Assembly: GCA_034716235.1 (NCBI GenBank)
Contig: JAYEHH010000019.1
Location: 16,114 to 80,113 of the forward strand
Origin: Patescibacteria group bacterium
GTDB lineage: Bacteria; Patescibacteriota; Minisyncoccia; CAIUEV01; JAHKAQ01
DNA length: 64,000 nucleotides
Reading direction: 5' to 3'
The notes below the pieces were generated by a model, which was given only the letters and a program-made list of their open reading frames with translations, searched no databases and was not told where the DNA came from. Shown one piece after another: positions 7,093 through 60,124 of this stretch. The stretch's first letter is position 1. Each line of letters starts with the position of its first letter. The position numbers and the translations under genes were made by a program.

Positions 7093-7104
7093 GGAAAAGT
7101 TAGA

Positions 7105-7870: not shown

Positions 7871-8118
7871 CACTAGCTGACCAGTTACAAATTTTAGAAA
7901 ATTTTATAATTTAAATAATTCAACCCAATATTTAGTCCAGCGTTCTAGCCTTGAATTTAATATTCAATCTGAAACTTAATTTAGCGTTTCATTTCAAAAC
8001 TTAGTTTGAGATTGAGGCTAAGATCGATTTGAAATTAGTATAAAATTGATACAAATAGCTATGTCTATACTTACCCTGACAAAAATTAATCTAGTAAAAT
8101 AAATAAATTTTAAACTCT

Positions 8119-17101: not shown

Positions 17102-18226
17102 TTATTGTTTGTTTATTGGAGAAATTATACATAGAAAGTTTTTTCCTCTTTCTTTATTGGGTTCTATTAATATTGGAGAATCGTTTTGATTTATTAAAAT
17201 TCGCAATTCATCTTCCTTAATACTATTAATACTATCTGTTAAATACTTATAATTTAAAACAATTTTTACTTTTTTACCACTTGCCTTAATCTTAACCTTC
17301 TTTAATGTCTTACCAGTGTCTTTAGATTGAGCAGAGACGTTCATTATCCTATTGGATGGTTGGATATCCAATAAAATATCATTTGAATCAGCCTGAGAGA
17401 AAAGAGCAGCTAATTTAACAGCACCAAGAAGTTCATTTTTATCTAAAATAATTTCTGTTTTATACTCTTTGGGAATTATTTGTGTGTAATCTGGATAATT
17501 TCCATCAATAACTCTTGAAACTAAATAAATATTTTCACACTTAACAGCTATTTGATTCTCTTCAACCAATAAAGATACTACTTCTTCTCTTTGATTAAAA
17601 ATATGAATAATCTCAACCGCTGTTTTACCAGGAATGATTAAGGCATTACTTATTTTTTTCTTTGATTTTTTAATTATTTTCTGCTTTATAGTTCTTTCAC
17701 TTAAACGAAAACCATCCGTAGCGACGACTTTTACTTCGCCCTTTTTCCTTAAAATATAAACTCCAGCTAAGTCAGGCCTCATATTAGAAATAGCTATTGA
17801 AGGAATAACCTGCTCAATTGCCCTAGCTAAATCCTTCCCTTTCATTTTAAGAAAAATATTCTTTCCAACTTGAGGAATTAATGGGAAATCCTTACTTTCA
17901 ACCCCCTTAATTTCATTATTACAAGTCCCTGTACTTATTTTAATATTATTTCCACTTTTCTTAATAGTAATCTTCTTTTCACTGATTCCCTCCATTACAT
18001 TACTTAATATTTTAGCTGGTACAGCTATTTTACCTGTTTTTTTTACAGAAGCTCTAATATTAAGAATAACACCCATCTCCAGGTTTGTTGCTTTTAAAAC
18101 TAATCCACCTTTTCTGGCTTCAAGATAAACACTAGATAAAATAGGAAGGGTTGTATTATAACCAGTAATTCTAGTTAATAAGTGAAGTTGGTTAATTAAA
18201 TGTTCTTTTAAAAATGTAAGTTCCAT
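17102..18226 (-). CDS. dnaN: DNA polymerase III beta sliding clamp
   Basis: 374 aa immediately downstream of dnaA, with three-domain clamp architecture; starts 'MELTFLKEHL'. Confidence 0.85.
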   Translation of the reverse strand: MELTFLKEHLINQLHLLTRITGYNTTLPILSSVYLEARKGGLVLKATNLEMGVILNIRASVKKTGKIAVPAKILSNVMEGISEKKITIKKSGNNIKISTGTCNNEIKGVESKDFPLIPQVGKNIFLKMKGKDLARAIEQVIPSIAISNMRPDLAGVYILRKKGEVKVVATDGFRLSERTIKQKIIKKSKKKISNALIIPGKTAVEIIHIFNQREEVVSLLVEENQIAVKCENIYLVSRVIDGNYPDYTQIIPKEYKTEIILDKNELLGAVKLAALFSQADSNDILLDIQPSNRIMNVSAQSKDTGKTLKKVKIKASGKKVKIVLNYKYLTDSINSIKEDELRILINQNDSPILIEPNKERGKNFLCIISPINKQ

Positions 18227-18423
18227 AGTATATAGTTTATTTATTATATATAATTAGTTATTACTATTAGATGGTGGAAAACCGGAATATGGACTAGAAA
18301 AACTTTATAGACGGCGAGTTAAGACATTAAATGTTGTGGCAAATGTTGTGGATATTTTTAGTAAAATAGTGACCTAGTAAGTGTTCACAAATAATCAACA
18401 AAGAAAAACACAAGTTAAACACA

Positions 18424-18469
18424 GGGAACAGTATTTATATTAAATATATTTAATATAAATACTGTTCCC
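18424..18469. repeat. 46-bp perfect palindrome overlapping the dnaA stop codon
   Basis: GGGAACAGTATTTATATTAAATATATTTAATATAAATACTGTTCCC equals its own reverse complement. Confidence 0.9.
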
Positions 18470-19805
18470 TAATTGTTGAAATTTCCTGCTTTAAAGCAAG
18501 ATTATTTTTTATCTTGGACTTTACCTTATTATAAGCATGAATAATGGTTGCATGATCTCTACCCCCTAATTCTTTTCCTATACATGGGTAAGAAAGTTTT
18601 AATTCCTCCCTCATAAAATAAATTACTATCTGACGAGGCTTAATAATATTACTTTTTCTACTTTTACCCGTAATTTCACTGGGTTTTATATTATAAAAAG
18701 TAGCCACAGATTCAATTATCTTATTGGGTGTAGTGGTTTTTACAATTATTTTAGAAAAAGAATCTCCAAGAATTTCTTGAGCATTCTTTAAAGAAAAAGT
18801 AAGCTTTTTTAATTGACAAACGGCGATATATTTATTTAAAGCTCCTTCTAATTCTCTAATATTATCAGGGACATTGCGTGCAATGTATTCTAATACATTA
18901 CGGGGTATATTGTGGGAATCTAGGTTTTTTATTTTTTGCATTAAAATAGCAATTCTTGTCTCAATATCTGGTTTTGAAATGTCTACAATCATTCCACCCT
19001 CAAAACGTGAACGAAGCCTTTCTTCTAATGTTGCTATTGATTTTGGAGGGCGATCAGAACAAATAACAATCTGTTTGTCTTCCTGATAAAGAGTATTAAA
19101 TATATGAAAGAACTCTTCCTGTGTTTTCTCTTTCCCGCCGATAAATTGAATATCATCAATTAATAAAATGTCAATATTTTTATAATCATCTTTAAATTTA
19201 TCAACTCGTTGTCCTTTAATAGAATCAATAAATTCTGTAGTAAATTTTTCTGAAGTTACATAACGAACCTTCAATCCCCTTTTATTATCACTGGTATTAT
19301 TTCCAATAGCTTGTAAAAGATGAGTTTTACCAAGACCAACACCTCCGTAAATAAAAAGAGGATTGTATCTCTCTCCGGGACTTTCCGTGATTGATTCACA
19401 AGCAGCTTTAGCTAATTCATTATGAGATCCAGTTACCAGATTTTCAAAGGTATAGCGACCATTAAGGTTTTGCTTATTAATACCGGTGCTATTTGTGGTA
19501 GAGTTGTTTATCTTGGTGTTTTTAGGAACTGGAGTTAAGGATTGTAGGGAAGGTTTTTGAACGGGTGTTATTTGATACTCAATTGATTTAACATCCTTGT
19601 AATGATTAAGAATAGACTCCTTAATAAATTTACCATATTTATTTTCTAACCACTCCTTACTAAATCCATTTGGAACAGCTATTATTACCTCACCATTTTT
19701 AATACTAGAAATATAAGTATTATTAAACCAAGTAACAAAGTTACCCTTACTTATTGTTACCTCAATTTCACCTAGAACGGCTTGCCAAATGTATTTTTTA
19801 TCCAT
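18450..19805 (-). CDS. dnaA: Chromosomal replication initiator DnaA
   Basis: AAA+ 'GGVGLGKTHLLQAIGN' and a C-terminal DnaA-box-binding domain. Confidence 0.9.
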   Translation of the reverse strand: MDKKYIWQAVLGEIEVTISKGNFVTWFNNTYISSIKNGEVIIAVPNGFSKEWLENKYGKFIKESILNHYKDVKSIEYQITPVQKPSLQSLTPVPKNTKINNSTTNSTGINKQNLNGRYTFENLVTGSHNELAKAACESITESPGERYNPLFIYGGVGLGKTHLLQAIGNNTSDNKRGLKVRYVTSEKFTTEFIDSIKGQRVDKFKDDYKNIDILLIDDIQFIGGKEKTQEEFFHIFNTLYQEDKQIVICSDRPPKSIATLEERLRSRFEGGMIVDISKPDIETRIAILMQKIKNLDSHNIPRNVLEYIARNVPDNIRELEGALNKYIAVCQLKKLTFSLKNAQEILGDSFSKIIVKTTTPNKIIESVATFYNIKPSEITGKSRKSNIIKPRQIVIYFMREELKLSYPCIGKELGGRDHATIIHAYNKVKSKIKNNLALKQEISTIREQYLY

Positions 19806-20055
19806 TCTTTTCTAAGAAAGACACATTAAAGATAATAGATTTTTATCCTAACATAAAAAAACAAATGAATAAAGGCAATAAGGGAATATTTTCTGTGCAA
19901 AAGCTGTGTAAAAGAATTAACGCCCAATAAAAGAACAACTCACCCCTTGTGTTATTAGGTTAGGATTAGACCTTAAGAAAACTATAATTATTTGACATTT
20001 CACTCTAACAACCCTAACTTAGTATTAAGATGTTTATTAAGTAACTAAAGTTTTT

Positions 20056-20199
20056 ATGTCAACCAAAAGAACCTATCATCCTAAAAATAGAAAAAGGAAG
20101 AAATCTTGTGGTTTTAGAATAAGGCAGAAAACCAAGGGAGGAAAGAAGGTTTTAGCTAGAAGAAGAAAGAAAAAGCGCCAAAGGGTTGTGGTTGCTTAA
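20056..20199 (+). CDS. rpmH: 50S ribosomal protein L34
   Basis: Translation '[47 protein letters not shown]'. Too short for the supplied ORF track. It occupies the classic rpmH-rnpA-yidC position. Confidence 0.8.
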
Positions 20200-20212
20200 T
20201 TTTAGGATTAAA

Positions 20213-20569
20213 ATGTTTAAAAGTAATCATTTAAGTAGAATAGAAATAAAGAAAACGCTTAAGAATGGGGAGCGTTTTTCTGTTAAGGGAGTAACAGCTA
20301 TCTTTTTACCAAGTAATGAAAAATTAGGAATAGTGGTTATTGTTTCTAAGAAAGTTTCTCCCAGTAGTGTTAATAGAAACAAGATTAAGCGGAAATTTAG
20401 AGAAGCCTTTAGGTTAATTATTAAAGATAAAGAAAATATAAAGGGTAATCTTATTTTAATTTGTCACCTTCCTAAATATTCATTTAGAGAAAGTGTTTGG
20501 TGTTTAAGAAAAATAATTAGTTTTATTTCTAAGAAAAAAAATGGACATTTTCATAAACCTCTTTCATGA
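20213..20569 (+). CDS. rnpA: RNase P protein component
   Basis: Follows and overlaps rpmH. Basic protein containing 'NRNKIKRKFREAFR' (the RNR motif region). ATG at 20213 is preferred over the track's TTG start at 20186. Confidence 0.7.
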   Translation: MFKSNHLSRIEIKKTLKNGERFSVKGVTAIFLPSNEKLGIVVIVSKKVSPSSVNRNKIKRKFREAFRLIIKDKENIKGNLILICHLPKYSFRESVWCLRKIISFISKKKNGHFHKPLS

Positions 20570-21341
20570 AATTTTATACCGCCCCTTCTTTAATGGGTTA
20601 GTGTTTTTCTATAAAGCGACCGGCGACCTGGGAGTAGCGATTATTATAGTTACGACTTTGATTAAGCTTTTACTATTTCCTCTTTCCAAGAAGCAGTTAA
20701 ATTCCCAACAAGAAATAAAAAAGATTCAACCCAAAATTAATGCGATAAAAGAAAAAAACAAAGGAAACAGAGAGGCTCAGAGTCGAGAAATGATGGAGCT
20801 ATATAAAAAAGAAAAAATAAATCCAGCGTCAGGATGTTTACCTCTTTTAATTCAATTACCCATATTAATTGCTCTTTATAGGGTTTTTATTCCAGGTAAA
20901 TCTTTATTTATTGACGGAGATCATCTTAGAGTTGCCATGGAAGTACTTTATTCTTTCCCCTACCTACAAAGTGTTACCGAAATTAAGAACACCTTTTTGG
21001 GTATTGTTGATTTAACCCAAAGAAGCATTCCCATTGCTCTTATAAGTAGTGCTTTACAGTTTATTCAAACTAAAGCGCTGATTCCTAAGAAAAAAACAGA
21101 AAAGAAGAAAAAGGATGACGATAAACAGCCAGCCTTCCAGGATGTTTTCAGTGGTCAAATGGTCTATATGATGCCCGCTATTACTTTCTTTTTTGGGATT
21201 AGTTTTCCCGCCGCCTTGCCTCTTTATTGGAGTGTTAGTACCGCCATTACCATAGCCCAACAGCGATTTTTAAAAGGACAATTAAAAAAAGATTCTTCTG
21301 AAACTAAAACTCTATCCACTAAAAAATCCACTAAAAACTAA
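20541..21341 (+). CDS. yidC: Membrane protein insertase YidC (short Oxa1-like form)
   Basis: 'KKQLNSQQEIKKIQPKINAIKEK...SREMMELYKKEKINPASGCLPLLIQLPILIALY', multi-TM. Confidence 0.8.
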   Translation: MDIFINLFHEILYRPFFNGLVFFYKATGDLGVAIIIVTTLIKLLLFPLSKKQLNSQQEIKKIQPKINAIKEKNKGNREAQSREMMELYKKEKINPASGCLPLLIQLPILIALYRVFIPGKSLFIDGDHLRVAMEVLYSFPYLQSVTEIKNTFLGIVDLTQRSIPIALISSALQFIQTKALIPKKKTEKKKKDDDKQPAFQDVFSGQMVYMMPAITFFFGISFPAALPLYWSVSTAITIAQQRFLKGQLKKDSSETKTLSTKKSTKN

Positions 21342-22797: not shown

Positions 22798-23612
22798 ATT
22801 TAGCGATTATTATTGTTAATTTTAACACAGCCAAGCATCTAAAAAGGACGCTTTTAAGTATTTTAAGCAATAGAGAGTTTAGAAATGAAGAAATTATTGT
22901 TGTGGATAATGGTGAATTTTACGACAATAAACGAATTTCTTTAAGAAAGCTACTTGCTGATTTACCACAGAAAACATTTAAGCTTTTAATCAATCATACC
23001 AACAAGGGTTTTGGTTATGCCTGCAATCAGGCAGTAAAGGAAACAGATAAGCAAAATATTCTTTTTTTAAATCCAGATTGTTTAATCACCAGTAAGAATG
23101 TTAAAAAATTAATTACAACCCTAAATTCATCAAAAAAAGTTGGTATGGTAGCTCCACGGCTTCTTAAGGAAAATAATAAAGACCAGCGCTGGAGTTTTGC
23201 TAATGAGCCTGATGTTTGGTCAAGGCTTTTTAATCCATTCAAAGAGATAACCGATCAATATTTATTGGCTCCGAATATTGCTAGCGTTGAATGGGTTAGT
23301 GGAGCTTGTTTAATAATAAAAAAAGAGGTATTTTTGGAAGTTAATGGGTTTGATGCTAATTTCTTTTTATATTTTGAAGATAGAGATTTATGTTTAAGGG
23401 CAAAAAATGCTGGATATCAGATCTTACGTAATCAAAAAGCCGAAGCAACTCACCTAGAAAGTCAAAGTTTTATTGGATGGAGTGATAGAAAAAAATATTA
23501 TTATCGCTCTCAGGATTATTTTTTTAAGAAGCATTATGGTTCACTGGCAACCAACTTAATGAAAATTCTTAGAGTTCCCTATTATGTTAAAAATATCTAT
23601 TTTTCTAAATAA
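22794..23612 (+). CDS. Family 2 glycosyltransferase
   Basis: 'AIIIVNFNTAKHLKRTL...IIVVDNG' and 'YFEDRD' (DxD region). Confidence 0.75.
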   Translation: MNLAIIIVNFNTAKHLKRTLLSILSNREFRNEEIIVVDNGEFYDNKRISLRKLLADLPQKTFKLLINHTNKGFGYACNQAVKETDKQNILFLNPDCLITSKNVKKLITTLNSSKKVGMVAPRLLKENNKDQRWSFANEPDVWSRLFNPFKEITDQYLLAPNIASVEWVSGACLIIKKEVFLEVNGFDANFFLYFEDRDLCLRAKNAGYQILRNQKAEATHLESQSFIGWSDRKKYYYRSQDYFFKKHYGSLATNLMKILRVPYYVKNIYFSK

Positions 23613-25062
23613 ATTTTTCTTATTAGCCATTCTGTTGGCTGGTGGTGTAGGAGCAGGTATCGGTTTATATCCTGTTGAAACACTTATTCTAATTACACTT
23701 CTCTTAATTGGCTTATTAATCTTCTTTTTTCCAAGAACATCTTTAGTTTGGCTTGCTTTCCTTTTTCCATTCTTGCCCGCCTTAAATTTAGGCGCAGGTG
23801 TTGATTTGGCCAGTGGCCGAGTGTTGATCTTGCTTTTATTTTTCAGTTGGTTAGCACATTCCTTGGCGAACAAATGTTTTAAAGTCCCTCTTAAGATTAT
23901 GGGCTTATTGGTAATTTTGTTTTTAGTTTGGGTGGCAGGGTCTTATATTTATTCTCCAATCACCGAAAGAACTTTTCGTAAGTTATTGGTTTTTTATAGT
24001 ATTTTCCCTTTATTCTTTATTGGCTATGGGATGTTTATGGAATATGGAAAAAAGTTAGTCTTATCAGTTTTTAAGGCCGTTGCGGTAGGATCGATAGGAA
24101 TTATTTTAATAGGAATAATACAATTTCTATCCCAATTTTTTTGGGGAGGTCAAACTGTTGCCGGTATTTATTCTAATTATATAGCTCCTTTTCTTTGGGG
24201 GAAAACGGTAGCAGTAACGGTAGCCAGTAATCCTAGTTGGTTTTTTGATGCTGGTTCTATTGATTTATTAAGAGCTTTTGCAACCTTTCCCGATCCCCAC
24301 ATGCTGAGTTACTTTCTAGCTTTTGCCATACCTCTCTTAGTGGGGATCGGCCTTTTCCAGAAAAAGAAAAAGCTAAAGATTTTATACCTAACCTCAGCCT
24401 TTATGGGATTAGTGGTTGAGTTACTAACTTTTTCCAGAGGAGGATATTTAGGATTTTTCTCAGCTCTTACTTTTATTTTGACGATTTTATTCTTTAGCTC
24501 TTCAAATAAAAAATTATTAGTAGAAATTGTAGGAGGAATAGGCGCTGGACTATTAGTGTTAGGAATAATTTTTCCAGTTAATCCCATTTTTCAAAGAGTT
24601 GGTTCTATTTTTAATACTTACGAGGGTTCCAATCAAGGAAGATTGGAAATTTGGGGAGAAGCTTTTAATCTTTTCAAAGATAGGCCATTGTTGGGAGTAG
24701 GTCTGGGAGCCTATTCTTACGAAGTAAGGCCAGCTGCCAATTATCGAGATCCAATTTATGCTCATAATCTATATTTAGAATTTTTAGCAGAAATTGGAAT
24801 CCCAGGATTCATATTTTGGCTAGGAATCATTGTTTCAGCTATCTGGATTTTCACTAAAAACTATTTAAAAAACAAAAAAAGCGAAATGGGGATAATTTCT
24901 TTCGCTTTAGGATCTTCTTTGGTTTGGTTTTCTGTCCATTCTCTTTTTGAAATGCCGGTTTATTCTCCAATTATACTCCCCTTGCTTGTCCTTACACTAG
25001 CTTTAGCTAGTTATCTGGAGGATAATCTATCTGGTGGGTCGGCCACCTCTAGAAGCTTGTAG
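23584..25062 (+). CDS. O-antigen ligase/polymerase-like (Wzy_C) membrane protein
   Basis: Polytopic, with the 'YAHNLYLEFLAEIGIPGFIFW' Wzy_C motif. Confidence 0.6.
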   Translation: MLKISIFLNKFFLLAILLAGGVGAGIGLYPVETLILITLLLIGLLIFFFPRTSLVWLAFLFPFLPALNLGAGVDLASGRVLILLLFFSWLAHSLANKCFKVPLKIMGLLVILFLVWVAGSYIYSPITERTFRKLLVFYSIFPLFFIGYGMFMEYGKKLVLSVFKAVAVGSIGIILIGIIQFLSQFFWGGQTVAGIYSNYIAPFLWGKTVAVTVASNPSWFFDAGSIDLLRAFATFPDPHMLSYFLAFAIPLLVGIGLFQKKKKLKILYLTSAFMGLVVELLTFSRGGYLGFFSALTFILTILFFSSSNKKLLVEIVGGIGAGLLVLGIIFPVNPIFQRVGSIFNTYEGSNQGRLEIWGEAFNLFKDRPLLGVGLGAYSYEVRPAANYRDPIYAHNLYLEFLAEIGIPGFIFWLGIIVSAIWIFTKNYLKNKKSEMGIISFALGSSLVWFSVHSLFEMPVYSPIILPLLVLTLALASYLEDNLSGGSATSRSL

Positions 25063-26865
25063 CTCCTTTTTAGCTTTAGCAATTTCTATTAACTGGGCTG
25101 GATCAGACGTGATGATTTGGTCTTCCGTATAAGAAGCAACCACTCTTATGGCAGCGTGTTTTAATCCAGCAAAGAAAATTCCTTCTCCTACCTTACTTTC
25201 TAGAAGCATAAATTTTTCCTGTTCAGTTAAATAAAACGTTTCACTTATCAGGTCTATAGATGCCGGAGATTGTCTTAATAAAAGCTGGATGGATGAGTTA
25301 GTAATAATAGGCTTGCCGTAGGGGGAGTTTATAAAATCTGAAATATCTTGAGTAATAGTGGTTAAACCAGTGAAATATTTACGGCAACGCTTGGCAATGC
25401 GAAACATAAAATTGCCAGCATCTTCATGGGCCATCATTATCCATGCCTCATCAACAAACAAGAGGCGCTTTCTAAGATTGGAACGAATTTGATTCCAAAC
25501 ATATTGCAAAACTAGATACATAGCCACCGGTCTTAGGATTTCTTCCATGTCGCGAATATTAAAAACTATCAATTGAGTATCCACTCTTACATTAGTAGTT
25601 TTATTTAGAAAGCCTGCAAAGGTTCCTTCAGTGTATTTTTCAAGACGAATAGCTAAGTCTTCTCCTCCGCTCATATTCCTTAAAACATCATATAAAAGAG
25701 ACATGGTGGGAGGATTTTGAGAAGTCGTTTTAAAATTAGGAGAATCAGCGGTAATATCTTTTACGGCATAAGTTTCTCTAATGGCTCTATCTAGAATGGA
25801 ATCTTCTTCGGGGGTAATATTCCCCATAACAATCCTCATAAGCCCCAGAATATTTACAATTCCACTTCTTAAAATTTCTTCAGGGTCATCGTCGTCTTGC
25901 ATTAAGGGTAAATCAAAGGGGTTAATATGATTAGGAGAAGTTAAAGATATTTTTACAAATGAGCCTCCAACCGCATTACAGAGATGCTTGTATTCATTTT
26001 CTGGGTCTATAATAATTACCTGAGTTCCAAACATTAAAGAGCGTAAAATTTCTAACTTAGCGGTGTATGATTTCCCAGCACCTGATTTAGCAAAAACTAC
26101 CATATTGGCATTTTCCATCTTAAAACGATCAAAAAGAACCAAGCTGTTATTGTGACGGTTTATTCCGTATAAAATACCATCATTAGAGCTTAAATTTGAA
26201 GAAGTAAACGGAAAAGAGGTTGACAGCGGAGAGGTGTTTAGGTTTGTTGAAGCATCTAACTCATCATTGGCTAGAGGTACAGTAGAAGCAAAACCTTGTT
26301 CCATTCTAAATACTGCCGGTTTTAAATAAACTAAGCGAGCCTCTAAAATAGATTCAATAGAATTACAAAGATCATTTAATTCTTTTTCTGTTTTTCCATA
26401 GGCTGTAATATAAACTCCAAAGCGAAAGAAGCGTTCTACTCCTTGTTGAAGTCTGTCGCGTAAATCCTCAATATCCCGTAAAGAAGTTTCCAGAACAGGG
26501 TCTCTAATTTTTCCGGCTTGGGTTTCCAATGTCATTCTGGATTGTACCTGAGTAGCTGTTTTTCGAAGAGACTTTAAAATTACCCCAGTATCAACAGGAT
26601 GAGTAAACATAGAAATGTCAAACATTCTATCCAGATTAATAATGGGAGAAAACCAGCCCGTTTGAAGGTAACGAGGATAAGCTATAATAAATAAAGTTTT
26701 AACAAATCTATTTCCCACTCTCAGCATAGATGGAGAAACATTAAAAGATGCTGGAGCAATTAGGTCCTTAATAGTGGCTAGTCCTTGCAAGTAAGTCTTT
26801 TCAGCACTTAACTGCCCAGGAGCTGTCTTTGCTTTAGGCTTGTTGAAAGAAAAAAGTTTATTCAT
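25027..26865 (-). CDS. VirB4/TrbE/CagE-family type IV secretion ATPase
   Basis: N-terminal 'GNRFVKTLFIIAYPRYLQTGWF', Walker A 'FAKSGAGKSYTAK', Walker B 'LLFVDEAW'. Confidence 0.7.
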   Translation of the reverse strand: MNKLFSFNKPKAKTAPGQLSAEKTYLQGLATIKDLIAPASFNVSPSMLRVGNRFVKTLFIIAYPRYLQTGWFSPIINLDRMFDISMFTHPVDTGVILKSLRKTATQVQSRMTLETQAGKIRDPVLETSLRDIEDLRDRLQQGVERFFRFGVYITAYGKTEKELNDLCNSIESILEARLVYLKPAVFRMEQGFASTVPLANDELDASTNLNTSPLSTSFPFTSSNLSSNDGILYGINRHNNSLVLFDRFKMENANMVVFAKSGAGKSYTAKLEILRSLMFGTQVIIIDPENEYKHLCNAVGGSFVKISLTSPNHINPFDLPLMQDDDDPEEILRSGIVNILGLMRIVMGNITPEEDSILDRAIRETYAVKDITADSPNFKTTSQNPPTMSLLYDVLRNMSGGEDLAIRLEKYTEGTFAGFLNKTTNVRVDTQLIVFNIRDMEEILRPVAMYLVLQYVWNQIRSNLRKRLLFVDEAWIMMAHEDAGNFMFRIAKRCRKYFTGLTTITQDISDFINSPYGKPIITNSSIQLLLRQSPASIDLISETFYLTEQEKFMLLESKVGEGIFFAGLKHAAIRVVASYTEDQIITSDPAQLIEIAKAKKELQASRGGRPTR

Positions 26866-26885
26866 AGAGAATTAAAAATAAATAC

Positions 26886-27596
26886 TTAAGCATACAGTGA
26901 AGTGTTTACAGCCATTCCTTCGATAGGAGCCAATTCTAATCTTTCAATAGGTCCAGGATTATAAGTAGAATAATATAACTCGATTAATTCTTGGGTGTTT
27001 AAAATAGCCAATCTCAAGCCTGTTCCCGTTAATCCATTTTGAACAAGGTCCACTCGTTGCCACAGTTGGTCTTTGTAAACCTCCAAGCTTGCTAATCCTT
27101 TCTTTTTAGTAGCTTTATTAGGAGAGAATATCTCAAAGAAACGGTCTTTTAGTTTACCTTTCTGGTTCTCAACGGGTGAGAAAGGAACAACAATGTAAAA
27201 ACTTTTATTTACAACATTAATAGTAACCGCCATGTTGGCAATATATTGAATATAATCTTCCATTTGCAAATGAAGTAGCTCGTTGGTTTGCTCTCGAGAT
27301 AATTTCTTTAGAGTATCAACATAATGCTTTAAGTTTATTTTACGAGAACTAATAAAAATCTGCAGAGGAAAATCTAAGGAGTTTAAAAAACTTTGATAGT
27401 GAGTAATAATAGCATCCTGTTCGTCGGTAGATTTGAGATCAAAATTTATAGAAGACACCATTAATACAGCCCTTAAGGCTCCATTTTTTAAAATTACCAC
27501 TCCATCTTTTATCTGATCAATATCTAAAAACTGCTGAGTACTACCGGTAGCTTGTTTTTGTTTAATTAATTTTTTTGCATGCAGAGATTGACTCAT
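26886..27596 (-). CDS. Hypothetical protein within the T4SS-like cluster
   Basis: Lies between the PrgI/VirB3-like and VirB4 genes on the same strand; no recognisable motif. Confidence 0.3.
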   Translation of the reverse strand: MSQSLHAKKLIKQKQATGSTQQFLDIDQIKDGVVILKNGALRAVLMVSSINFDLKSTDEQDAIITHYQSFLNSLDFPLQIFISSRKINLKHYVDTLKKLSREQTNELLHLQMEDYIQYIANMAVTINVVNKSFYIVVPFSPVENQKGKLKDRFFEIFSPNKATKKKGLASLEVYKDQLWQRVDLVQNGLTGTGLRLAILNTQELIELYYSTYNPGPIERLELAPIEGMAVNTSLYA

Positions 27597-27654
27597 TTAA
27601 ATATCTTTTGTATTTATTTTTAGGGATTGTAAATATGCCGACGAGATTCTTTTT

Positions 27655-28272
27655 CTAATTACTCTCTCGATCTTTCTCTCTTTTCAGTTGTTGGTTGCGT
27701 TCTTTATTTCTTAAGCGTGCTCCTTTTGTGTTAGCTGTCTCTTCTTTAATAACATTTTTTGATTGGACCATCAAATTTTTAGAAGAAGACTTTTTGTTTT
27801 GAGTGGCTGAATTAAAAAATTGTTGATCAGACATTTCTTGCTTACCATCAGCATCTAAAATATTGGCAATGTGTTCTACTTTTTGATGAGGAAACTCTTT
27901 TTTGGTAATAATAATTTCCATTTCTTCTTCCTTGTTTTTGTTTTTTGGATTGAATTGCTTTTTTCCTCTTTTCCAAATATAGCGTTTACCCTTGGTGCCA
28001 TAAATAAGAATATGTCCTAAAAAAGAAACCAGACTTTGATTATAAGGACGGAAAAAAGCAAAAGCAGAAACTATTCCCATTACAAGTATAGCTATAACAA
28101 TAAATAATGAAAGGTCAAAAATATGATACAGAATAAGGAGTGAAACACCCCCTCCTAAAAGCCATAAAAATTGCTTCCCAGTTAAGGGACCGACAATGGT
28201 ATCTTCTATATCTATATCTTTTGGAATCTTAGATCTCATGGGTTGATTAATTAAATAATATAATTCCTTCAT
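27655..28272 (-). CDS. PrgI/VirB3-like two-TM membrane protein
   Basis: Two adjacent TM helices near the N-terminus followed by a charged tail, positioned upstream of VirB4. Confidence 0.35.
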   Translation of the reverse strand: MKELYYLINQPMRSKIPKDIDIEDTIVGPLTGKQFLWLLGGGVSLLILYHIFDLSLFIVIAILVMGIVSAFAFFRPYNQSLVSFLGHILIYGTKGKRYIWKRGKKQFNPKNKNKEEEMEIIITKKEFPHQKVEHIANILDADGKQEMSDQQFFNSATQNKKSSSKNLMVQSKNVIKEETANTKGARLRNKERNQQLKREKDRESN

Positions 28273-29710
28273 TTTTAGTGATAGCGAGAGGAGTGTCTTT
28301 GTCGTGAGAGGTAATGATAGTTTCTAATCGATGGCGTTCTTCTGTACTTAGATTCCTAGCATTAATTGACTTAAATAGAAACTCTTGTCGCTCATCCTCG
28401 GTATTTCCAGTTGCTCCAAATTGACTGCGGTAATCAAAAAGCCAGTTTTGAACAGTAGGAGAAACCTTTGTATCTCGTCCTAAAAGTGAAATTGGAGCTG
28501 AAGTTATGGGTTGATCAGCAACACGAGGATTAGTTTGAAGTGCTTGTTTGATTGTTTTTTGAATTGTTGAGCCATCTGATGGTTTTTTTAAAGGAACGGG
28601 TTGTAATCGTTTAGGAAAATTAACGCCTTGAGCTTCTGGTTTTGGAAGTGAAGAAGTTGACGGAACCGATGAGGTTGTTTGAGCTGATGCTGGCATCTGT
28701 CTTAACGGTTGTTGAGTGGGAGCCGGTGGTTGTTGAAATTTCTGTTGTTGCAGGACAGCTGACTGACTAACTGACTGGGCTGTTACTGGTTTAGAAGCTG
28801 TTGGCTGGAATGTTTGTTGAGGTATTTGCTGCGGAGTGGCTTGTTGATTAACTGATTTGGATGTAGCTTGCTGGGACAATGTTTGTTGAGATGGTTGCTG
28901 ACGAGGTGGTGTAGTTTTCTGCTGAGTTGCGGCTTGTTGCCGAGGTGTTTGTTGAAATTGTTGCTGAGTTGCGACTTGTTGGCTAGATGCTTGTTGTTGA
29001 GGTAAAACGTTTTGTTGTGAAATACTCCCTGTTTGTTTAGCGGTTTTTGTTTCTTGAGCAACAACTTTGGCTAATTGTTTTTCTTGTTTATCTATTTTTT
29101 CTACCTCATCCATAATTTGTTTTATAGAAAATATTTTAGTTGATTCAAAAAGCAAAAGCAGTTCTTCTAAGATTTTTTTATCTGGCAAAGAAAGAGACTG
29201 GGCATTGATTGAATCGGTCATATATTTTCTAACGGCCATTTCGTTTTGTTTGTCCATGCCATATATCTGAACATAGTCTTTAAGCCAGTTGCCAATGGTT
29301 GGTCTAGCTTTAGGATTATCTCCTATGGAAATAGATTGAGACCCCAATAGCTCTTCATTCTTAAGCATAGCATTAAGTATCCGAGGGACCGATTCATTCC
29401 ACATAATAGTGGGTGAGGCAAGATATTTTATCCGAAAAGCTTTTTTAAGACTAAATCCTTTACTATGAATTGGAATAAGAATGTTTTTAGTTAAAAGTTC
29501 TAGCTGATCTTTTTCAATTAAGGCAGGGAAAGCTACCCACTGCATTCTAATTTTTAACTCTTTGAGCCATTTTTCACTGAGACCTTCAGTTCCGGATTTA
29601 CTGCTAAGTTTATTTAAAACATCAAGAGCAATTTCTGTTTCTTGATTTTCCCAAGCTATTAAACTAGAGTCTAATAATTTTTTTGTTTCGGGACTAAGAT
29701 TGTTAGGCAT
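28247..29710 (-). CDS. Q/P/T-rich low-complexity protein with duplicated terminal ~50-aa domains
   Basis: 'TIGNWLKDYVQIYGMDKQNEMAVRKYMTDSINAQSLS' near the N-terminus resembles 'TVQNWLFDYRSQFGATGNTEDERQEFLFKSINARNLS' near the C-terminus. The central region is Gln/Pro/Thr repeats. Confidence 0.3.
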   Translation of the reverse strand: MPNNLSPETKKLLDSSLIAWENQETEIALDVLNKLSSKSGTEGLSEKWLKELKIRMQWVAFPALIEKDQLELLTKNILIPIHSKGFSLKKAFRIKYLASPTIMWNESVPRILNAMLKNEELLGSQSISIGDNPKARPTIGNWLKDYVQIYGMDKQNEMAVRKYMTDSINAQSLSLPDKKILEELLLLFESTKIFSIKQIMDEVEKIDKQEKQLAKVVAQETKTAKQTGSISQQNVLPQQQASSQQVATQQQFQQTPRQQAATQQKTTPPRQQPSQQTLSQQATSKSVNQQATPQQIPQQTFQPTASKPVTAQSVSQSAVLQQQKFQQPPAPTQQPLRQMPASAQTTSSVPSTSSLPKPEAQGVNFPKRLQPVPLKKPSDGSTIQKTIKQALQTNPRVADQPITSAPISLLGRDTKVSPTVQNWLFDYRSQFGATGNTEDERQEFLFKSINARNLSTEERHRLETIITSHDKDTPLAITKNEGIILFN

Positions 29711-29742
29711 AATTAATATATTCTTGTTTATAAATGAGTAAA

Positions 29743-32331
29743 TTAAACATTGTCTTCGTCTCCCATCATTCCAACCATACCTTCTGCCTGTCGCGCTGAG
29801 ACATTTATCACTTCGTTAATTTTACGTTTTTCTTCCGTGCTAAGTTGGTTAGTAACTTCAGTGTTTTTAACAAGCTTTTTAAGCTCTTTGATATCTTTGG
29901 ATGGAATAACCTTAAACCTTTGTTGAGTTTCTACAAAATTGTTATCCATATTTTTGATGGTTACATGAGCTGTATCAGCAAGTTTTTTTGTGCCGTCAGG
30001 TAAGGTTTTAACAATTAAATTGGCTTTAAAAGTCCTGGCGTAGTTTCTAGAACTTAAATTAGAGAGCATCTCATCAATGTTGTGGACTCTTTCTTCACTG
30101 GTTGCTGAACGCATTTGTTTAGTTTTAGAATCCATTATTGTTGTTCCGGCTTCGTTATAATGTTTATTTTCTCTGGCTATATTGTCTAAATCAACCCTAA
30201 GAAGATCTCCTGGTCTTTTACTGTTACCTTTAAATTTTTCGTCAATAAAATCATTTAAAGTAGCGTTGGAATCTATAAAACCTGCACCTTGTAATTCATT
30301 CGTTATGTTCATTCCCTTTTTTGCCATTAAACGCAACCCAGCTTCTATGTCTGCAGGGCTTGTACCGTTTCCAACTCTTGTGATCAACTGACTTGGAGTT
30401 TTTGTTTCTTGTGTCATTCGCTCAGTAGCCGTAGCCACTTTTTGTTGATGTACTCTGTCGTCATGGAAAAAGGATCGATATTTTTCACCATAGACTTCTC
30501 TTTTAGCTGCTTTTCTATATTCAGCATCAAAATTTTCAGCAAGATTGTTTGTAGTCCATTCAGTTTCTAGGGTGCCCCTCTGTTCCTGTAGTTTTTGTCT
30601 ACGATTAGCTATTTCATTTTTTCGATCTGCTATTTCAGCCATCCTTTCTTCTGAGAACGGAGTCCCTCGTCTTTGGTTTTCTTCATCAATAAGAGATTGG
30701 TTTTCTGCTCCTAGCTCTGTATCTTCTTCGTCAATATCATTTTTTCCTTTTTCATTTTTTGCTCTAGCGGCTGCTCTTTTTTTGTCTTCTGCGTCACCAG
30801 CTATTTGTGTTTTCGGTGTCATACCTATTAATCTACGTGACTGATTAGTCATAGCTAGCCAAGTAAGGCTTCCAAGTTGACTCAAAGATTCAGTGTCTTC
30901 TTTCCCTTGAGCATCCATTGTTTTCTTGTAAGCGCCATAAAGACCACGACCAAGAGTTACAGGCTCAAGCATAGCCATTGTTTTAGCAGCCCCACTAGCT
31001 CCAACAAGCCCCTTGCCCATTCCGGGGGCCATTTTTCTAGCTCTAGCTTTTGTTCTTTCCCATAAACCTGCATTATCTCTCAATGCTTCTGGTGGTGTTA
31101 CCTGCTTTAATCGTTCGCCAGCTCCTTTAAGAATAGTTTTAGTTCCATGAAGCCCTATTTTATGAAGTGCCATTGATCCACCAACTACCGCAATCTGAGC
31201 CATTCTAGTTACTTTGCTTGCTCCAGCAATGCTTAGTGAAGCGGCGGCAATAATAGAGCCCCATAATAAAATAGATGAAAACATTAAATACATATAGATA
31301 TTGTGGCTAGCGACAATAGGCTCCACATACTTTTTATCACCAAGTGTTTTACCATTACCTAAGTCCATATCTGTTAAATCATTTTTGGGATTGCTAACAA
31401 CTAATTCCCCGCTTATTAAATTCATCGTATTGGCAGAGAACCAAAGAAAAAAGAAAAGGATTGGTCCTGCCATAGCATACTTCAAAAAACTGCCCCACCA
31501 TTTCTTAGCCGTTCCCTCAGTATCGGGTAAAACTAATCCAATATAAGCAATAGGTGACAAAACCAATAATACCCAAAGAGCTACCGTTCTAATAATTAAA
31601 AATATACCTACGCTTAAAACAACAATAGCGGTCATAGCTATAAAAATAAGTGGTGCTACGGCTCCTGCCGTAATAGCTGCAATAGTTGCCAAATCTGGAG
31701 CATCAAGGATATGCTTAATAGTGTCCCATCTTCTCATAGAAGGACCCCATAAAAGACCTTTTATTGCTTTTTCAACTTCTTCTAAAGGATGTCCAAAAAT
31801 CCCATTAAACATTAAAACATGAAAGAAGTCTAAAATCAGTCCGGCAAAAACTAAACTAAAATTGGTAAGTAAGGCAACCACAACTAATTTTACAAGCAGT
31901 TTCTTGTAATTATATTTTTCAATTCTAAATAAGGTTCCTACTCCAATGAAAAGTAAAACTATAATGTAGAACATATTGCAAATGGAAGCGACCACCTTCC
32001 ATCCATTACGTACCATTGGATTTATAGCAAAACCTTTTAAGATGTCTCGATAATATATTGGGTCAAATAAGTCATGAACCAATTTAACAACTAATTCAAA
32101 AATCATCCAAACAAAAAGTTCTATTGCCCAGGCCCCAATTGCTATAATAAGGGCAGGGATTTTTATTAACAGATTAGCAAGTTCATCAAGAGCCCCTCCG
32201 GATAAAAGTTTTCTTACTGCTTCCATGAATGTTATTGCTTGAACTGTTTCTGTGGACATAATAAAAAAGAACAAAGAAACGGACATTACAAGCCCAGTAG
32301 ATAATAAAATTCGTTTTAAATTAAACTTCAT
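29743..32331 (-). CDS. VirB6/ConG-like large polytopic membrane protein
   Basis: About 400 N-terminal residues carry 10 or more TM helices, followed by a ~450-aa charged/coiled C-terminal half. It lies in an operon-like arrangement with VirB4. Confidence 0.45.
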   Translation of the reverse strand: MKFNLKRILLSTGLVMSVSLFFFIMSTETVQAITFMEAVRKLLSGGALDELANLLIKIPALIIAIGAWAIELFVWMIFELVVKLVHDLFDPIYYRDILKGFAINPMVRNGWKVVASICNMFYIIVLLFIGVGTLFRIEKYNYKKLLVKLVVVALLTNFSLVFAGLILDFFHVLMFNGIFGHPLEEVEKAIKGLLWGPSMRRWDTIKHILDAPDLATIAAITAGAVAPLIFIAMTAIVVLSVGIFLIIRTVALWVLLVLSPIAYIGLVLPDTEGTAKKWWGSFLKYAMAGPILFFFLWFSANTMNLISGELVVSNPKNDLTDMDLGNGKTLGDKKYVEPIVASHNIYMYLMFSSILLWGSIIAAASLSIAGASKVTRMAQIAVVGGSMALHKIGLHGTKTILKGAGERLKQVTPPEALRDNAGLWERTKARARKMAPGMGKGLVGASGAAKTMAMLEPVTLGRGLYGAYKKTMDAQGKEDTESLSQLGSLTWLAMTNQSRRLIGMTPKTQIAGDAEDKKRAAARAKNEKGKNDIDEEDTELGAENQSLIDEENQRRGTPFSEERMAEIADRKNEIANRRQKLQEQRGTLETEWTTNNLAENFDAEYRKAAKREVYGEKYRSFFHDDRVHQQKVATATERMTQETKTPSQLITRVGNGTSPADIEAGLRLMAKKGMNITNELQGAGFIDSNATLNDFIDEKFKGNSKRPGDLLRVDLDNIARENKHYNEAGTTIMDSKTKQMRSATSEERVHNIDEMLSNLSSRNYARTFKANLIVKTLPDGTKKLADTAHVTIKNMDNNFVETQQRFKVIPSKDIKELKKLVKNTEVTNQLSTEEKRKINEVINVSARQAEGMVGMMGDEDNV

Positions 32332-37032: not shown

Positions 37033-37410
37033 TTAAAAAGCATATTTAATATGTTTTATTTTTGTTTTATTTTTGCCAATAATTATTGAGATAACATCGC
37101 AACGGTATTCTTCGTCGGGAGAAAGTTTCTTTTCTTTTATAAAGGCTGTGGCCGTTTTCCTTATTTTTGCAATTTTAGAATTGGAAATTGTAGATTCGGG
37201 AGGTTCCAATAGCTCGTCTTCTTGCTTAATAAATCTAGACTTAACCTCAATAAATATAACAACAGAGTCTTTTTTGGCAACAATGTCAATCTCCCCTTCT
37301 CGTTTTAAGTAATTACGTTCAATAACATGATATCCATTACTTGTCAAATAACGAACTGCAAGATCTTCCCCCTTATTTCCTCTCTTTTTTCTATTTCCTA
37401 AATTAATCAT
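37033..37410 (-). CDS. yraN: YraN/UPF0102 family endonuclease
   Basis: 'KGEDLAVRYLTSNGYHVIERNYLKREGEIDIVAKKDSVVIFIEVKSR'. Confidence 0.7.
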   Translation of the reverse strand: MINLGNRKKRGNKGEDLAVRYLTSNGYHVIERNYLKREGEIDIVAKKDSVVIFIEVKSRFIKQEDELLEPPESTISNSKIAKIRKTATAFIKEKKLSPDEEYRCDVISIIIGKNKTKIKHIKYAF

Positions 37411-37625
37411 AAAGATTTCTTAAGTTAATTAAAGCTATATGCTAGAAAGTGGTATCAAATCCTAAAGAAAGTAACATTAAATCTCAAATAAGTAAATACG
37501 GAATAACATTTCACCAGAAGTGTTATGAAAAGATACCAGTATTTATAGAAAGTTAGAGGACACGATTGTTTTGAAATACCTTAAAACGTATTTAGATATT
37601 TGTCAAATGATGCAAGTAAGGCTAG

Positions 37626-37938
37626 ATCAAATTGTTCCACGTGGAACAATTTGACACTGAACCATGTTTAGGAATGTTCCACGTGGAACAATTTGATCGT
37701 TATTGTAACAATTAAATTAGAAATAATTAAAAATCATAAATCATTTTTTCGCTATCTGTATTTTAGAGAATAGTTTTTTCGCATCTTTTAGGAATGTTCC
37801 ACGTGGAACATTCTGCCGATTATTACCACCGTTGAGCCAAAAAAGTTGTGGAACATGGATATTATTTTTAGAACATCTATTTTTCCGAGTTGTTTTTTAA
37901 GCTATTTTTCAATTGTTCCACGTGGAACAATTTGATCG
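37626..37938. repeat. Array of four perfect CACGTG-centred palindromes (TTGTTCCACGTGGAACAA / GAATGTTCCACGTGGAACATTC types)
   Basis: Copies at 37626-37655, 37672-37697, 37792-37813 (22-bp perfect) and 37912-37933 (22-bp perfect). The last overlaps the 3' end of ORF 37902-39380. Confidence 0.85.
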
Positions 37939-39380
37939 TTATTGTTTTTAATAAACTTGCTACTAGAAATAATAATGATTAAAAATATAGCTAAGATTGC
38001 ATTGCCCTGACTAAGCGTGTAAAGATAATGATCGACAATCCCAGATATTAATAGCAAGAGAAAGCCAGTTAGTATTATTTTATTATGAAAACTTGGTCCG
38101 GATATTTTTTTATTTAAAAATAGGAAATTTATTAGGAAAAACAAAAGGAAGGATGTTAAAATAATCCCCAATTCACTCATGGTTATTAAGCACATATTAT
38201 GCACAGGTTGAAGCTCCCAAGGGCTTAAATTAAAGGAATTGTGCGATTCAGTAAAAAGAATAAAAGTGCCTGCCCCAGCGCCTAGTAAGGGATTCTGTGT
38301 AATTATTTGCTGGGAAGATGCTAAATAGATTTCTCTTAAAGTGGTATCTTCCTTTTTAAAGGATCCTTTCTCATTCCACCTGTTTTTAACTAATGGTAAA
38401 AAAATTAACAATAAAACGAACAGACTTCCTAAAGAAATTATTACTACTCTGTTTAAATATTGTTTTCTACAAAAAAATATTCCAACAAGAAAAAGCAATA
38501 AAAGAAAGATAGAAATTCTAGAGAAAGTAAAAAAAAGTGCTACAGAGTTTATTAAAATAATTAAAGAAAGTAGCTTGATTTTATTCTTAGATACAAATTT
38601 AAATAATGCTTTAATTGGTTTTTTAATATGCAATATCAAATTGTTCCACGTGGAACAATTTGATATTGAACCATGTTTAGGAATGTTCCACGTGGAACAT
38701 TCGGTCGCTATTCCCTTTAAATAAGCCAAATAAAAAAAAGAAAATGAAATACTTGCCAGTAAAAACCCTCCCAGAATATTTGGATGAGGCTCTGTCCCGT
38801 AGGCTCTAATCATCTTTCCCAAAGAAGAATCAATCTTGGCAACGCCTAAAATATCTGAAGCCAGTAGGCTTTCTCCCAATAATTCTAACCCTAAAGATCT
38901 TTGAATAATAAATTGACCGATAGCAATCAATGCCTGTAAAAAGGATGCGATAATAATTAATTGAATGGTGGTGAATAATCTTTTTGAATTTGAGATAAAA
39001 GATACCCCAAAAAATACAAGCAATGACCAAATTAAAAGATGAAATAATTTATGGATTGAAAGCAATACATTTATTGAGTTGAATACATTTAGCAATGCAA
39101 GAACTGCAATTGCTAGAAAGATTAGTAAATATCTATAGCTTGACAATTTCTTAATAAGATTGCTTAATATAAACTTACCATTGATTAAGAATAGTAATAT
39201 AATGAGTATCTCAGGAAAAGAAATATAAAGACTATTGTATTCAATAAAATGATTCTCAATAAAGGAAAAAGAATTAGAAAAAAAGAATCTTTTTTGAAAA
39301 GGGATTAAAAATATTATGGAATAAAAAAGGAAAGCTGTTAGCTGTTTTCTTACTTGGATAATATTTAATCTTTGTAGCAT
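37902..39380 (-). CDS. O-antigen-ligase-like (Wzy_C) polytopic membrane protein carrying an in-frame palindromic-repeat insertion
   Basis: 'FTESHNSFNLSPWELQPVHNMCLITMSELGIILTSFLLF' Wzy_C-like motif. Residues 'IATECSTWNIPKHGSISNCSTWNNLIL' are encoded by the repeat at 38633-38701. Confidence 0.5.
   Translation of the reverse strand: MLQRLNIIQVRKQLTAFLFYSIIFLIPFQKRFFFSNSFSFIENHFIEYNSLYISFPEILIILLFLINGKFILSNLIKKLSSYRYLLIFLAIAVLALLNVFNSINVLLSIHKLFHLLIWSLLVFFGVSFISNSKRLFTTIQLIIIASFLQALIAIGQFIIQRSLGLELLGESLLASDILGVAKIDSSLGKMIRAYGTEPHPNILGGFLLASISFSFFYLAYLKGIATECSTWNIPKHGSISNCSTWNNLILHIKKPIKALFKFVSKNKIKLLSLIILINSVALFFTFSRISIFLLLLFLVGIFFCRKQYLNRVVIISLGSLFVLLLIFLPLVKNRWNEKGSFKKEDTTLREIYLASSQQIITQNPLLGAGAGTFILFTESHNSFNLSPWELQPVHNMCLITMSELGIILTSFLLFFLINFLFLNKKISGPSFHNKIILTGFLLLLISGIVDHYLYTLSQGNAILAIFLIIIISSSKFIKNNNDQIVPRGTIEK
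38633..38701. repeat. Composite palindromic element (34-bp perfect palindrome + 14-bp spacer + 22-bp perfect palindrome) lying inside a CDS
   Basis: ATATCAAATTGTTCCACGTGGAACAATTTGATAT ... GAATGTTCCACGTGGAACATTC; near-identical to 37626-37697. Confidence 0.85.
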
Positions 39381-39509
39381 TTTGAAATATTATTTTAATA
39401 GGTAACATTAACAGAAATATTTTTTTTGTCACTTTTTTAGATAGAATATTTCATAGGAGTTGTTTATTGCCTCATTAATACTAGGAAATTGACATACTGA
39501 CAAAAGGCT

Positions 39510-39545
39510 GTTTGATTTTTTGCTATAAGAATGGTATAATATAAA
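39510..39545 (+). promoter_or_regulatory. Candidate sigma70-type promoter (TTGATT-N17-TATAAT) with no downstream CDS
   Basis: tttgattttttgctataagaatggtataat. Confidence 0.3.
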
Positions 39546-39954
39546 AGTTGAGTAAAGAACCTTAACAAATGAATTGTTAGCTTCAAATTTAGCAGAAGTT
39601 TTCTGGCTGTAATGTTTTGGTTTGTGAATAAATTATAGTTAGTAATCTTCTGCTGAATAAATCCTAATTATTGTTTTGTTTTTTAAAATAAAAATAAAAA
39701 TAAAAATTATTATAAACAAAAATAAAAAATTGAAAATCTTAAACGCTGTCTAAAAAAAACGAAACAATAAAAAATTATTTGGTAGAAGAAAAGGAGCTTA
39801 ACAGTTCCACATCTCGTCACAAAGAATATCCAGACGAAACAATAAAAAATAAAAAAGTTTCGTTTAGCGTTTTATCACCCTTTCGCTTATGGATTGGTTC
39901 TTTTTACCCTTTATGACGAGCTCGAGCGGGTGACAGTTCTCCAAAAGTAATATA

Positions 39955-39982
39955 ATAGGGGAATCTGTCCCCGCTTTTTAAT
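39955..39982 (+). terminator. Putative rho-independent terminator (GGGGA-atctg-TCCCC + T-run)
   Basis: ggggaatctgtccccgcttttta, with no plus-strand ORF upstream. Confidence 0.35.
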
Positions 39983-40095
39983 TTTTGATCAACTGATTTG
40001 TCATTTTAGAATATTCTTGATAAAATTTAAACTACTAAAGTGAAATTATTAATTTACTATTTAAGTTTAAAATATTAAGTAATAAAAAATAAATT

Positions 40096-59962: not shown

Positions 59963-60047
59963 TTATTTTTACAGAGAGAAAAAGGAATTATCTTATAAGA
60001 ACTAAAAATATGAATTTTGACCAAGGCAGAAGGAAAGGTGAAGCTAC

Positions 60048-60110
60048 TTGTTGACTTTCGATATACTTTCGATATACTGATAATATACTCGAAAATAAAT
60101 CGAAAGTTAG
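60048..60110 (+). promoter_or_regulatory. Promoter/operator of the LexA-MTase gene: TTGACT-N16-TATACT with three ATATACT iterons at 11-bp phasing, flanked by inverted ACTTTCGA/TCGAAAGT
   Basis: ttgactttcgatatactttcgatatactgataatatactcgaaaataaatcgaaagt. Confidence 0.4.
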
Positions 60111-60124
60111 TTAATTCAAGCACT

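Follow-up and report, generated by a model that had tools for sequence, protein, structure and literature searches.

Six palindromes in and beside a Wzy_C/WaaL-like gene as a probable origin-proximal parS cluster of a Patescibacteria chromosome

The genome of a Patescibacteria group bacterium (NCBI GenBank assembly GCA_034716235.1) contains, in a stretch of 64,000 nucleotides of contig JAYEHH010000019.1 (hereafter the window), a set of perfect palindromes centred on CACGTG that are located partly inside and partly beside a gene for a polytopic membrane protein. The locus raises the question of what these palindromes are and how a coding gene can accommodate them. The initial annotation had seen in them a mobile palindromic element of the Rickettsia type, inserted in frame into the gene, and had kept as a fallback a cluster of operators for a CACGTG-binding regulator of a surface-polysaccharide gene. 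The analysis described here points to a different answer: the six palindromes are very probably canonical chromosomal parS sites that form a cluster close to the origin and serve this Patescibacteria (Candidate Phyla Radiation, CPR) chromosome as its centromere.

That six CACGTG-centred perfect palindromes are present was borne out. The core GTTCCACGTGGAAC occurs in six exact copies starting at positions 37634, 37676, 37796, 37915, 38643 and 38685, against none expected from 100 shuffles, and at all six the full 16-mer TGTTCCACGTGGAACA is matched at 16 of 16 positions. Every occurrence of CCACGTGG and of CACGTG in the window falls within these sites. Together with a conserved half-site, GTGGAACA, a seventh element beyond the six listed before, the 16-mers occupy positions 37633-38699. 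Perfect palindromy spans from 16 to 38 bp according to the site (Table 1), the maximum being 38 bp and not the 34 bp first given. Sites 1 and 2, as well as sites 5 and 6, are arranged as a palindrome, a 26-nt spacer and a second palindrome, and this cassette constitutes a direct repeat (37621-37690 and 38630-38699) with 94% identity between its two copies. The intergenic spacer had been credited with four copies lying upstream of the gene; it holds three, the fourth being the C-terminal site inside the open reading frame (ORF), and, with the gene read from the minus strand, the spacer copies are located downstream of it. An Rfam scan of the window returned only four tRNAs and no match at the palindromes.

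The identity of the sites is given by the 16-mer itself. TGTTCCACGTGGAACA is identical to parS2 and parS3 of Pseudomonas aeruginosa, chromosomal parS sites that are perfect palindromes and the ones for which the affinity of ParB is highest (PMC4368675). In that species nine of the ten parS sites lie in coding sequence, and four are clustered less than 16 kb from oriC (PMC4368675). All six sites of the window agree with the chromosomal parS consensus TGTTNCACGTGNAACA; the consensus tabulated for Bacillus subtilis is TGTTNCACGTGAAACA (PMC7022226). The setting is also that of a centromere, since the replication-origin gene set is contained in the same window and the cluster is separated from dnaA by about 18 kb, which makes it origin-proximal by gene content. 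According to established ParABS biology, ParB dimers would recognize each 16-bp palindrome and load there as sliding clamps dependent on cytidine triphosphate, and would then spread across the nearby few kb, forming the partition complex segregated by ParA. SMC is commonly loaded on the ParB partition complex.

Conservation of the sites follows the same line. The closest homologue of the host protein, P0001 (75% identity), is encoded on contig L001, where the genes follow one another as in the window (dksA-like, Wzy-like, YraN, CCA-adding enzyme), and L001 carries six parS sites at the same six positions as the window. Along an alignment of 1.2 kb, all 96 parS bases are identical in the two sequences, compared with 75% of the other columns and 68.5% of the intergenic non-parS positions, and the 38-bp palindrome is conserved in full. 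The block that contains the half-site (about 37835-37860, CATGTTCCACAACTTTTTTGGCT on the gene strand) is also nearly unchanged in L001, in a spacer that is otherwise about 68% identical. These alignments show the parS sites to be under strong purifying selection as DNA. The gene that carries them is a functional one, still under purifying selection, since the ratio of non-synonymous to synonymous substitution rates (dN/dS) between the window gene and its L001 orthologue is 0.18. Between lineages the common part is the 16-mer with 2-3 flanking bases, and spacers and palindrome arms diverge. The arms vary from site to site, except for a preferred (G/A)A(A/T) adjoining the core, the preferred flanks on its two sides being AAT with ATT, GAA with TTC and AAA with TTT.

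The association of the sites with this particular gene is not restricted to one pair of contigs. In a set composed of the window and ten related Patescibacteria loci (234 kb in total), 64 parS sites were counted. The Wzy-like ORF contains 54 of them, another 10 are at most 700 bp away from it, and the remaining 201.6 kb have none; nine of the ten related loci carry sites. The syntenic loci hold three (L002/L003), two (L008), eight (L004) and two (L005), in or just after the gene. More distant Wzy-like genes, those of L007, L129, L130 and L131, contain 5, 12, 11 and 9 sites, respectively, so that up to 12 parS are found in a single gene; all are inside the ORF, all three frames are used, and the neighbourhood is another one, in which the gene is flanked by S1 protein, cmk, tilS and ftsH at one end and by gyrA at the other. 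Start-to-start spacings in the relatives are often 41 or 50 bp, next to the 42 bp of the window. Hence, whatever its cause, the bare pattern is that parS arrays are confined to a Wzy-like gene in several lineages with different neighbourhoods. The frequency of the arrangement depends on how homologues are collected. A first census based on a word-indexed search gave parS peptides in 63 of 120 homologues, a figure that is inflated because such a search favours 5-mers shared with the query; when the census was repeated without a word index, and with a portion of the protein free of parS as query, 10 of 150 representatives had them, against about 0.06 expected by chance. The literature search yielded general parS papers and a gene table of Southlakia epibionticum, but no description of parS from CPR genomes or Wzy/WaaL genes, and a search on the CSTWN, FHVEH and VPRGT peptides gave nothing relevant. 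As far as could be found, a whole parS array packed in frame into one WaaL-like gene across Patescibacteria is thus an undescribed variant of a known element.

A further locus was noted on a contig labelled 'uncultured Bdellovibrionales' (L065, GC 0.34), where a 513-aa ORF at 724-2262 on the minus strand contains seven parS sites. This ORF belongs to the same Wzy-like family (hhalign probability 99.9%); the alternatives are a mislabelled bin and an arrangement that reaches beyond Patescibacteria.

The site itself is widespread. A scan at the DNA level alone, with one genome per species and two perfect sites required at 10-40 nt from each other, gave at least 120 loci. The matches listed come from Acidobacteriota, Bacteroidota, Bacillota, Pseudomonadota, Verrucomicrobiota, Planctomycetota, Actinomycetota and Patescibacteria; among them, about 35 of the 8-kb stretches encode a protein of some 300 aa that carries the ParB GERRxRA box, gidA or recF adjoins others, and dense clusters reach 11 sites in 1.7 kb, so that dense clustering is not peculiar to the window. 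The two Patescibacteria loci among these matches, L021 with six sites and L023 with eight, again have them inside Wzy_C ORFs. Recurrence across phyla in such company is the behaviour of a canonical centromere. Close pairing, or the 42-bp spacing, was considered as a CPR-specific trait and rejected, as pairs with start-to-start distances of about 27 to 55 bp occur in many phyla among the matches listed.

Several observations weigh against the identification of the cluster as the centromere. No ParB or ParA gene was found in the 64-kb window, either by Pfam on its roughly 50 ORFs or by a motif regular expression, the ORF that runs off the end being dnaG, and in the 11 related loci searched neither gene occurs up to 10 kb away from the Wzy-like gene. 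That ParB binds the sites in this organism is therefore inferred. The position of the origin is likewise indistinct: a search for DnaA boxes marking oriC gave 24 matches where 17.7 were expected, which is the level of chance, and GC skew is ambiguous for placing oriC in the window. One related locus with an orthologue-like gene, L006, lacks any parS in 17 kb, so that the association of parS with the gene is not obligatory. Finally, the 16-bp ParB site alone does not explain the extended palindromy, which in the window and L001-L008 averages 4.4 additional complementary positions on each side of the 16-bp core (up to 11); the local base composition would give 0.42, and the parS sites of other phyla (L009-L128, among the matches listed) have 1.5. 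As to the partition proteins, the phylum Patescibacteria does possess a ParA/ParB system. In the cultivated Saccharibacterium Southlakia epibionticum, SEML1_0183 (ParA/Soj-like, K03496) is adjacent to SEML1_0184, a ParB/RepB/Spo0J protein with PF02195 and PF17762, and both are essential or growth-defective by transposon sequencing (PMC10633639 supplements).

The L006 locus comes from a metagenome-assembled genome of Candidatus Moranbacteria (GCA_014729445.1), and its Wzy-like homologue has 36% identity and a long loop in the same place. Its neighbourhood is rearranged, RuvC, 7TM and ATP-grasp genes lying to one side of the gene and GatC and GatA to the other, and the locus has the appearance of a lineage whose centromere sites were lost or relocated. 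In the window, the minimum of the cumulative GC skew falls at about 38 kb, and a gene-free AT-rich stretch of about 700 bp (39381-40095) separates the Wzy-like and dksA-like genes, where gene orientation flips from minus to plus. A terminator-like hairpin, GGGGAATCTGTCCCC, callable on both strands, is found in it at 39958-39972. This stretch may be relevant to the replication start site.

Table 1. Positions of the predicted parS sites, of the genes around them and of the replication genes of the window
Feature	Position	Strand or location	Description	Remark
Predicted parS site 1	37633..37648	intergenic	TGTTCCACGTGGAACA; perfect palindrome 37627-37654 (28 bp)	conserved in L001
Predicted parS site 2	37675..37690	intergenic	perfect palindrome 37675-37690 (16 bp); 42 bp start-to-start from site 1	conserved in L001
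Composite module A	37621-37704		sites 1 and 2	
Predicted parS site 3	37795..37810	intergenic	perfect palindrome 37792-37813 (22 bp)	conserved in L001
Half-parS site	37848..37855	+	GTGGAACA	between sites 3 and 4
Predicted parS site 4	37914..37929	last 11 codons of Wzy-like ORF	read VPRGT; perfect palindrome 37911-37932 (22 bp)	low-pLDDT tail
Predicted parS site 5	38642..38657	in Wzy-like ORF	read CSTWN, aa 242-246; centre of perfect palindrome 38631-38668 (38 bp)	conserved in L001
Predicted parS site 6	38684..38699	in Wzy-like ORF	read CSTWN, aa 228-232; perfect palindrome 38681-38702 (22 bp)	conserved in L001
Composite module B	38630-38713		sites 5 and 6	
AT-rich spacer	37411..37901		from Wzy-like stop codon to YraN/UPF0102 start	sites 1-3 and half-site
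Wzy-like host gene	37902..39380	-	492 aa, polytopic membrane protein, predicted O-antigen ligase (Wzy_C/WaaL-like)	carries sites 4-6
YraN/UPF0102 gene	37033-37410	-		
Replication-origin gene set	17102..21341		dnaN, dnaA, rnpA, yidC	
dnaN	17102-18226	-		
dnaA	18450-19805	-		
rnpA, yidC	from 20186 to ~21.3 kb	+	diverging	
gyrB	48418			
dnaG	~62.9 kb			runs off window end

The way in which the host gene accommodates the sites can be read from its product. The protein gives a match to Pfam PF04932 (Wzy_C) with E=2.3e-12 and 47.4 bits, over a cut-off of 31.7, and its AlphaFold model has a mean predicted local distance difference test (pLDDT) value of 89.2 and a predicted template modelling score (pTM) of 0.90; the sole significant PDB match of the model is WaaL (7TPG, probability 1.00, template modelling scores 0.51/0.61). 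On these grounds the protein is classified as a Wzy_C/WaaL-like family member and predicted O-antigen ligase. The parts of the model with low confidence are residues 231-251, residues 338-342 and the C-terminal tail, and the first and last of these, with pLDDT below 50, are encoded by parS. The 16-mer contains no stop codon in any of the six frames, a property that extends to all six because it is a palindrome, and is read as CSTWN, VPRGT or FHVEH. As initially described, the composite copy runs in frame through the ORF without a stop (...IATECSTWNIPKHGSISNCSTWNNLIL...), the translation of the intragenic cassette being ...TECSTWNIPKHGSISNCSTWNNLIL..., and another copy, the site at 37914, occupies the last 11 codons (...DQIVPRGTIEK, then stop). 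Placement of the insert in a protein loop was likewise confirmed by the homologues. In an alignment of 90 sequences, the segment between the anchors L207 and F286 has a median of 37 aa in proteins with no parS, 63 with one and 82 with two; in the window protein it measures 78 aa, an insertion of about 41 residues, and not 23, by the two intragenic sites. The parS peptides of the homologues lie in hydrophilic stretches, with 0.3% in hydrophobic cores compared with 15.8% of all residues. The expanded loop has 8 K/R for 1 D/E and, by the positive-inside rule, is probably cytoplasmic. Thus parS can sit in the gene because the site has no stop codon in six frames and because the host tolerates the added residues in a disordered K/R-rich loop and at the C-terminus.

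A second Wzy_C paralogue, also of 492 aa, is encoded at 23584-25062 on the plus strand, about 4 kb from dnaA. It has no parS, and its similarity to the parS-bearing protein is barely detectable (best BLASTP E=0.015).

The number of sites differs between relatives, and the traces of how it changed are visible. L002 contains an exact tandem duplication of 66 bp (22 codons, AECSTWNILDL...) that includes one parS, at positions 10679-10760, absent from L008 (10679-10694), and the proteins P0002 of L002 and P0003 of L008 are near-identical apart from these 22 codons. In one Wzy-like gene of L129 (10660-11499), a module of three parS at spacings of 41 and 50 bp is present three times, in different loops; its second spacer, the 34 nt between two parS, is near-identical in all three modules, and the first one differs. 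The two cassette spacers of the window match at 24 of 26 positions, whereas the orthologous spacers of window and L001 match at 20 of 26 and 16 of 27, and the two of L001 between themselves at 17 of 26. This pattern indicates that the duplication is old and that gene conversion has since acted recently in the lineage of the window, and such conversion between cassettes accounts for the 94% likeness of the two composites. Moreover, protein length increases with parS number by about 17 aa per site (r = 0.69), in a homologue sample that is biased. Site number changes by local duplication and by gene conversion between palindrome-spacer-palindrome cassettes. Short-range copying and homogenising of these cassettes is a point in favour of the initial annotation. 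An origin of the arrangement in history and local amplification, rather than in functional coupling, is favoured.

These same traces are what a mobile element would leave, and the reading of the palindromes as a small selfish composite, comparable to a Rickettsia palindromic element (RPE) or to a miniature inverted-repeat transposable element and tolerated in ORFs because it is translatable, must be weighed with them. The two 70-bp cassettes 1 kb apart, the spacer shared by three loops of the L129 gene, the parS peptides at differing positions in different homologues, the growth of the protein with each site, and the in-frame addition of a peptide segment that is disordered in the model would all fit it. 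The distribution does not. All copies of the window lie within 1.1 kb of 64 kb, and of the 64 sites in 234 kb none is farther than 700 bp from the Wzy-like gene, so that the palindromes are locus-specific and dispersal is missing, an outcome that the initial annotation itself had named as refuting a mobile element. The six of the window stand at orthologous positions in a relative whose protein is 75% identical. What is kept between lineages is the 16-mer with its few flanking bases and not the whole element, the core is identical to the pan-bacterial parS, neither a transposase gene nor a target-site duplication was seen, and local duplication with gene conversion accounts for the copies. The mobile-element reading is thus highly improbable, and the Rickettsia-type interpretation is abandoned here.

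Clustering and locus specificity, together with three sites located in the spacer, immediately upstream of YraN, would rather suit an operator array, bound by a local CACGTG transcription factor that controls the Wzy-like, YraN or surface-polysaccharide genes, and ParB-type spreading affects nearby transcription in some species. This fallback of the initial annotation holds as to the kind of explanation, a locus-specific protein-binding array; its regulator of a polysaccharide gene is made implausible by the 16-mer being the pan-bacterial parS, found across phyla, often beside ParB-like ORFs, gidA or recF. Three of the six sites are inside or at the end of an ORF, in relatives 9-12 sites are inside the ORF and none in promoters, and from one lineage to another the neighbourhood changes (dksA/YraN or S1/gyrA) while the arrangement of parS in the gene stays. 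A local operator is therefore more improbable still than a mobile element. A promoter scan of the window gave promoter-like matches at the level of shuffled sequence. The least probable explanation of all is a role in RNA, with the palindromes acting as terminators or as hairpins that stabilize the mRNA. The RNA folds are stable (-35.8 and -42.5 kcal/mol, z-scores of -6 and -10) and three palindromes follow the Wzy-like ORF, but any perfect palindrome would fold in this way, several of them are inside ORFs, and the terminator scan called none of them terminator-like because the T-tract tail is missing. Moreover, it is the exact sequence of the 16-mer that is conserved and not mere pairing, with no compensatory changes in the 16-mers.

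A stronger version of the parS identification can be formulated, in which the Wzy_C/WaaL-like gene would be a dedicated 'centromere gene' in many Patescibacteria, the array would be held there by selection and not by history alone, and the cassettes would have spread by parS-templated copying and not by duplication alone. We regard this version as unlikely. Two reasons for it could be advanced. Membrane insertion of the protein during its transcription and translation could anchor the ParB-origin complex at the membrane of these very small cells, or ParB occupancy could act as a cell-cycle gate on how the envelope enzyme is expressed.

If the palindromes are an ordinary bacterial centromere, the mobile-element and operator readings are removed and the window is marked as a CPR origin region. 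The sites would then serve as a simple marker by which the region of the centromere and origin can be recognized in CPR metagenome bins that are fragmented, and would explain why CSTWN, FHVEH and VPRGT recur as peptides in CPR proteins annotated as 'O-antigen ligase'. The locus is also a natural case of a signal at the DNA level that runs through the loops of a protein. A caution arises for word-based protein searches, which are drawn to the parS peptides, as the discrepancy between the two censuses illustrates. Should the association prove functional, it would bear on chromosome segregation in ultra-small cells.

Other features of the window stand apart from the parS sites. A 549-aa ORF at 60017-61666 on the plus strand combines a LexA DNA-binding domain, Peptidase_S24 (LexA autocleavage) and a complete C-5 cytosine DNA methylase (E=3.5e-94), an unusual fusion. 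About 1 kb between ruvB and a Lamin-tail-domain gene (7093-8118) has no ORF of at least 100 aa, the longest being 67, and no Rfam match. By the origin region, at 25027-32331 on the minus strand, a type-IV-secretion-like set is encoded, comprising a TraG/VirB4-like P-loop ATPase, PrgI-family and TrbL-like 862-aa proteins; a block containing PrgI also follows the parS gene in L004. A T2SSE ATPase of 1010 aa with two matched stretches is encoded at 2773-5805 on the plus strand.

Comparison with known systems places the array closest to chromosomal parS/ParB (Spo0J), with which it shares the identical 16-bp palindrome, several copies near the origin, strong conservation and frequent location within coding sequence. 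It differs from them in that the Patescibacteria sites are packed in one Wzy_C/WaaL-like gene as loop insertions of about 17-22 codons, in that here the ParB gene is not adjacent, and in a palindromy of 20-38 bp. RPEs likewise place palindromic DNA in frame into ORFs and add a tolerated peptide. They measure, however, roughly 100-150 bp and are dispersed in many unrelated genes and intergenic regions, and are not known to have a binding protein, whereas the present sites of 16-38 bp belong to a single locus, are conserved orthologously and equal a known protein-binding site. Repetitive extragenic palindromic (REP) sequences, bacterial interspersed mosaic elements (BIME) and REPINs mobilised by RAYT also consist of short palindromes often paired with a short spacer, but each genome has hundreds of dispersed intergenic copies, of lineage-specific sequence, in contrast to one locus with a pan-bacterial sequence. 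In sopC of the F plasmid, 12 tandem repeats of 43 bp each contain a 16-bp inverted repeat bound by SopB. Multiple 16-bp inverted repeats at a spacing of about 41-50 bp are common to both arrays, and in sopC they serve for nucleation of a ParB-family partition complex; the present array differs in being chromosomal, not strictly tandem, and interleaved with the transmembrane-helix codons of a functional gene.

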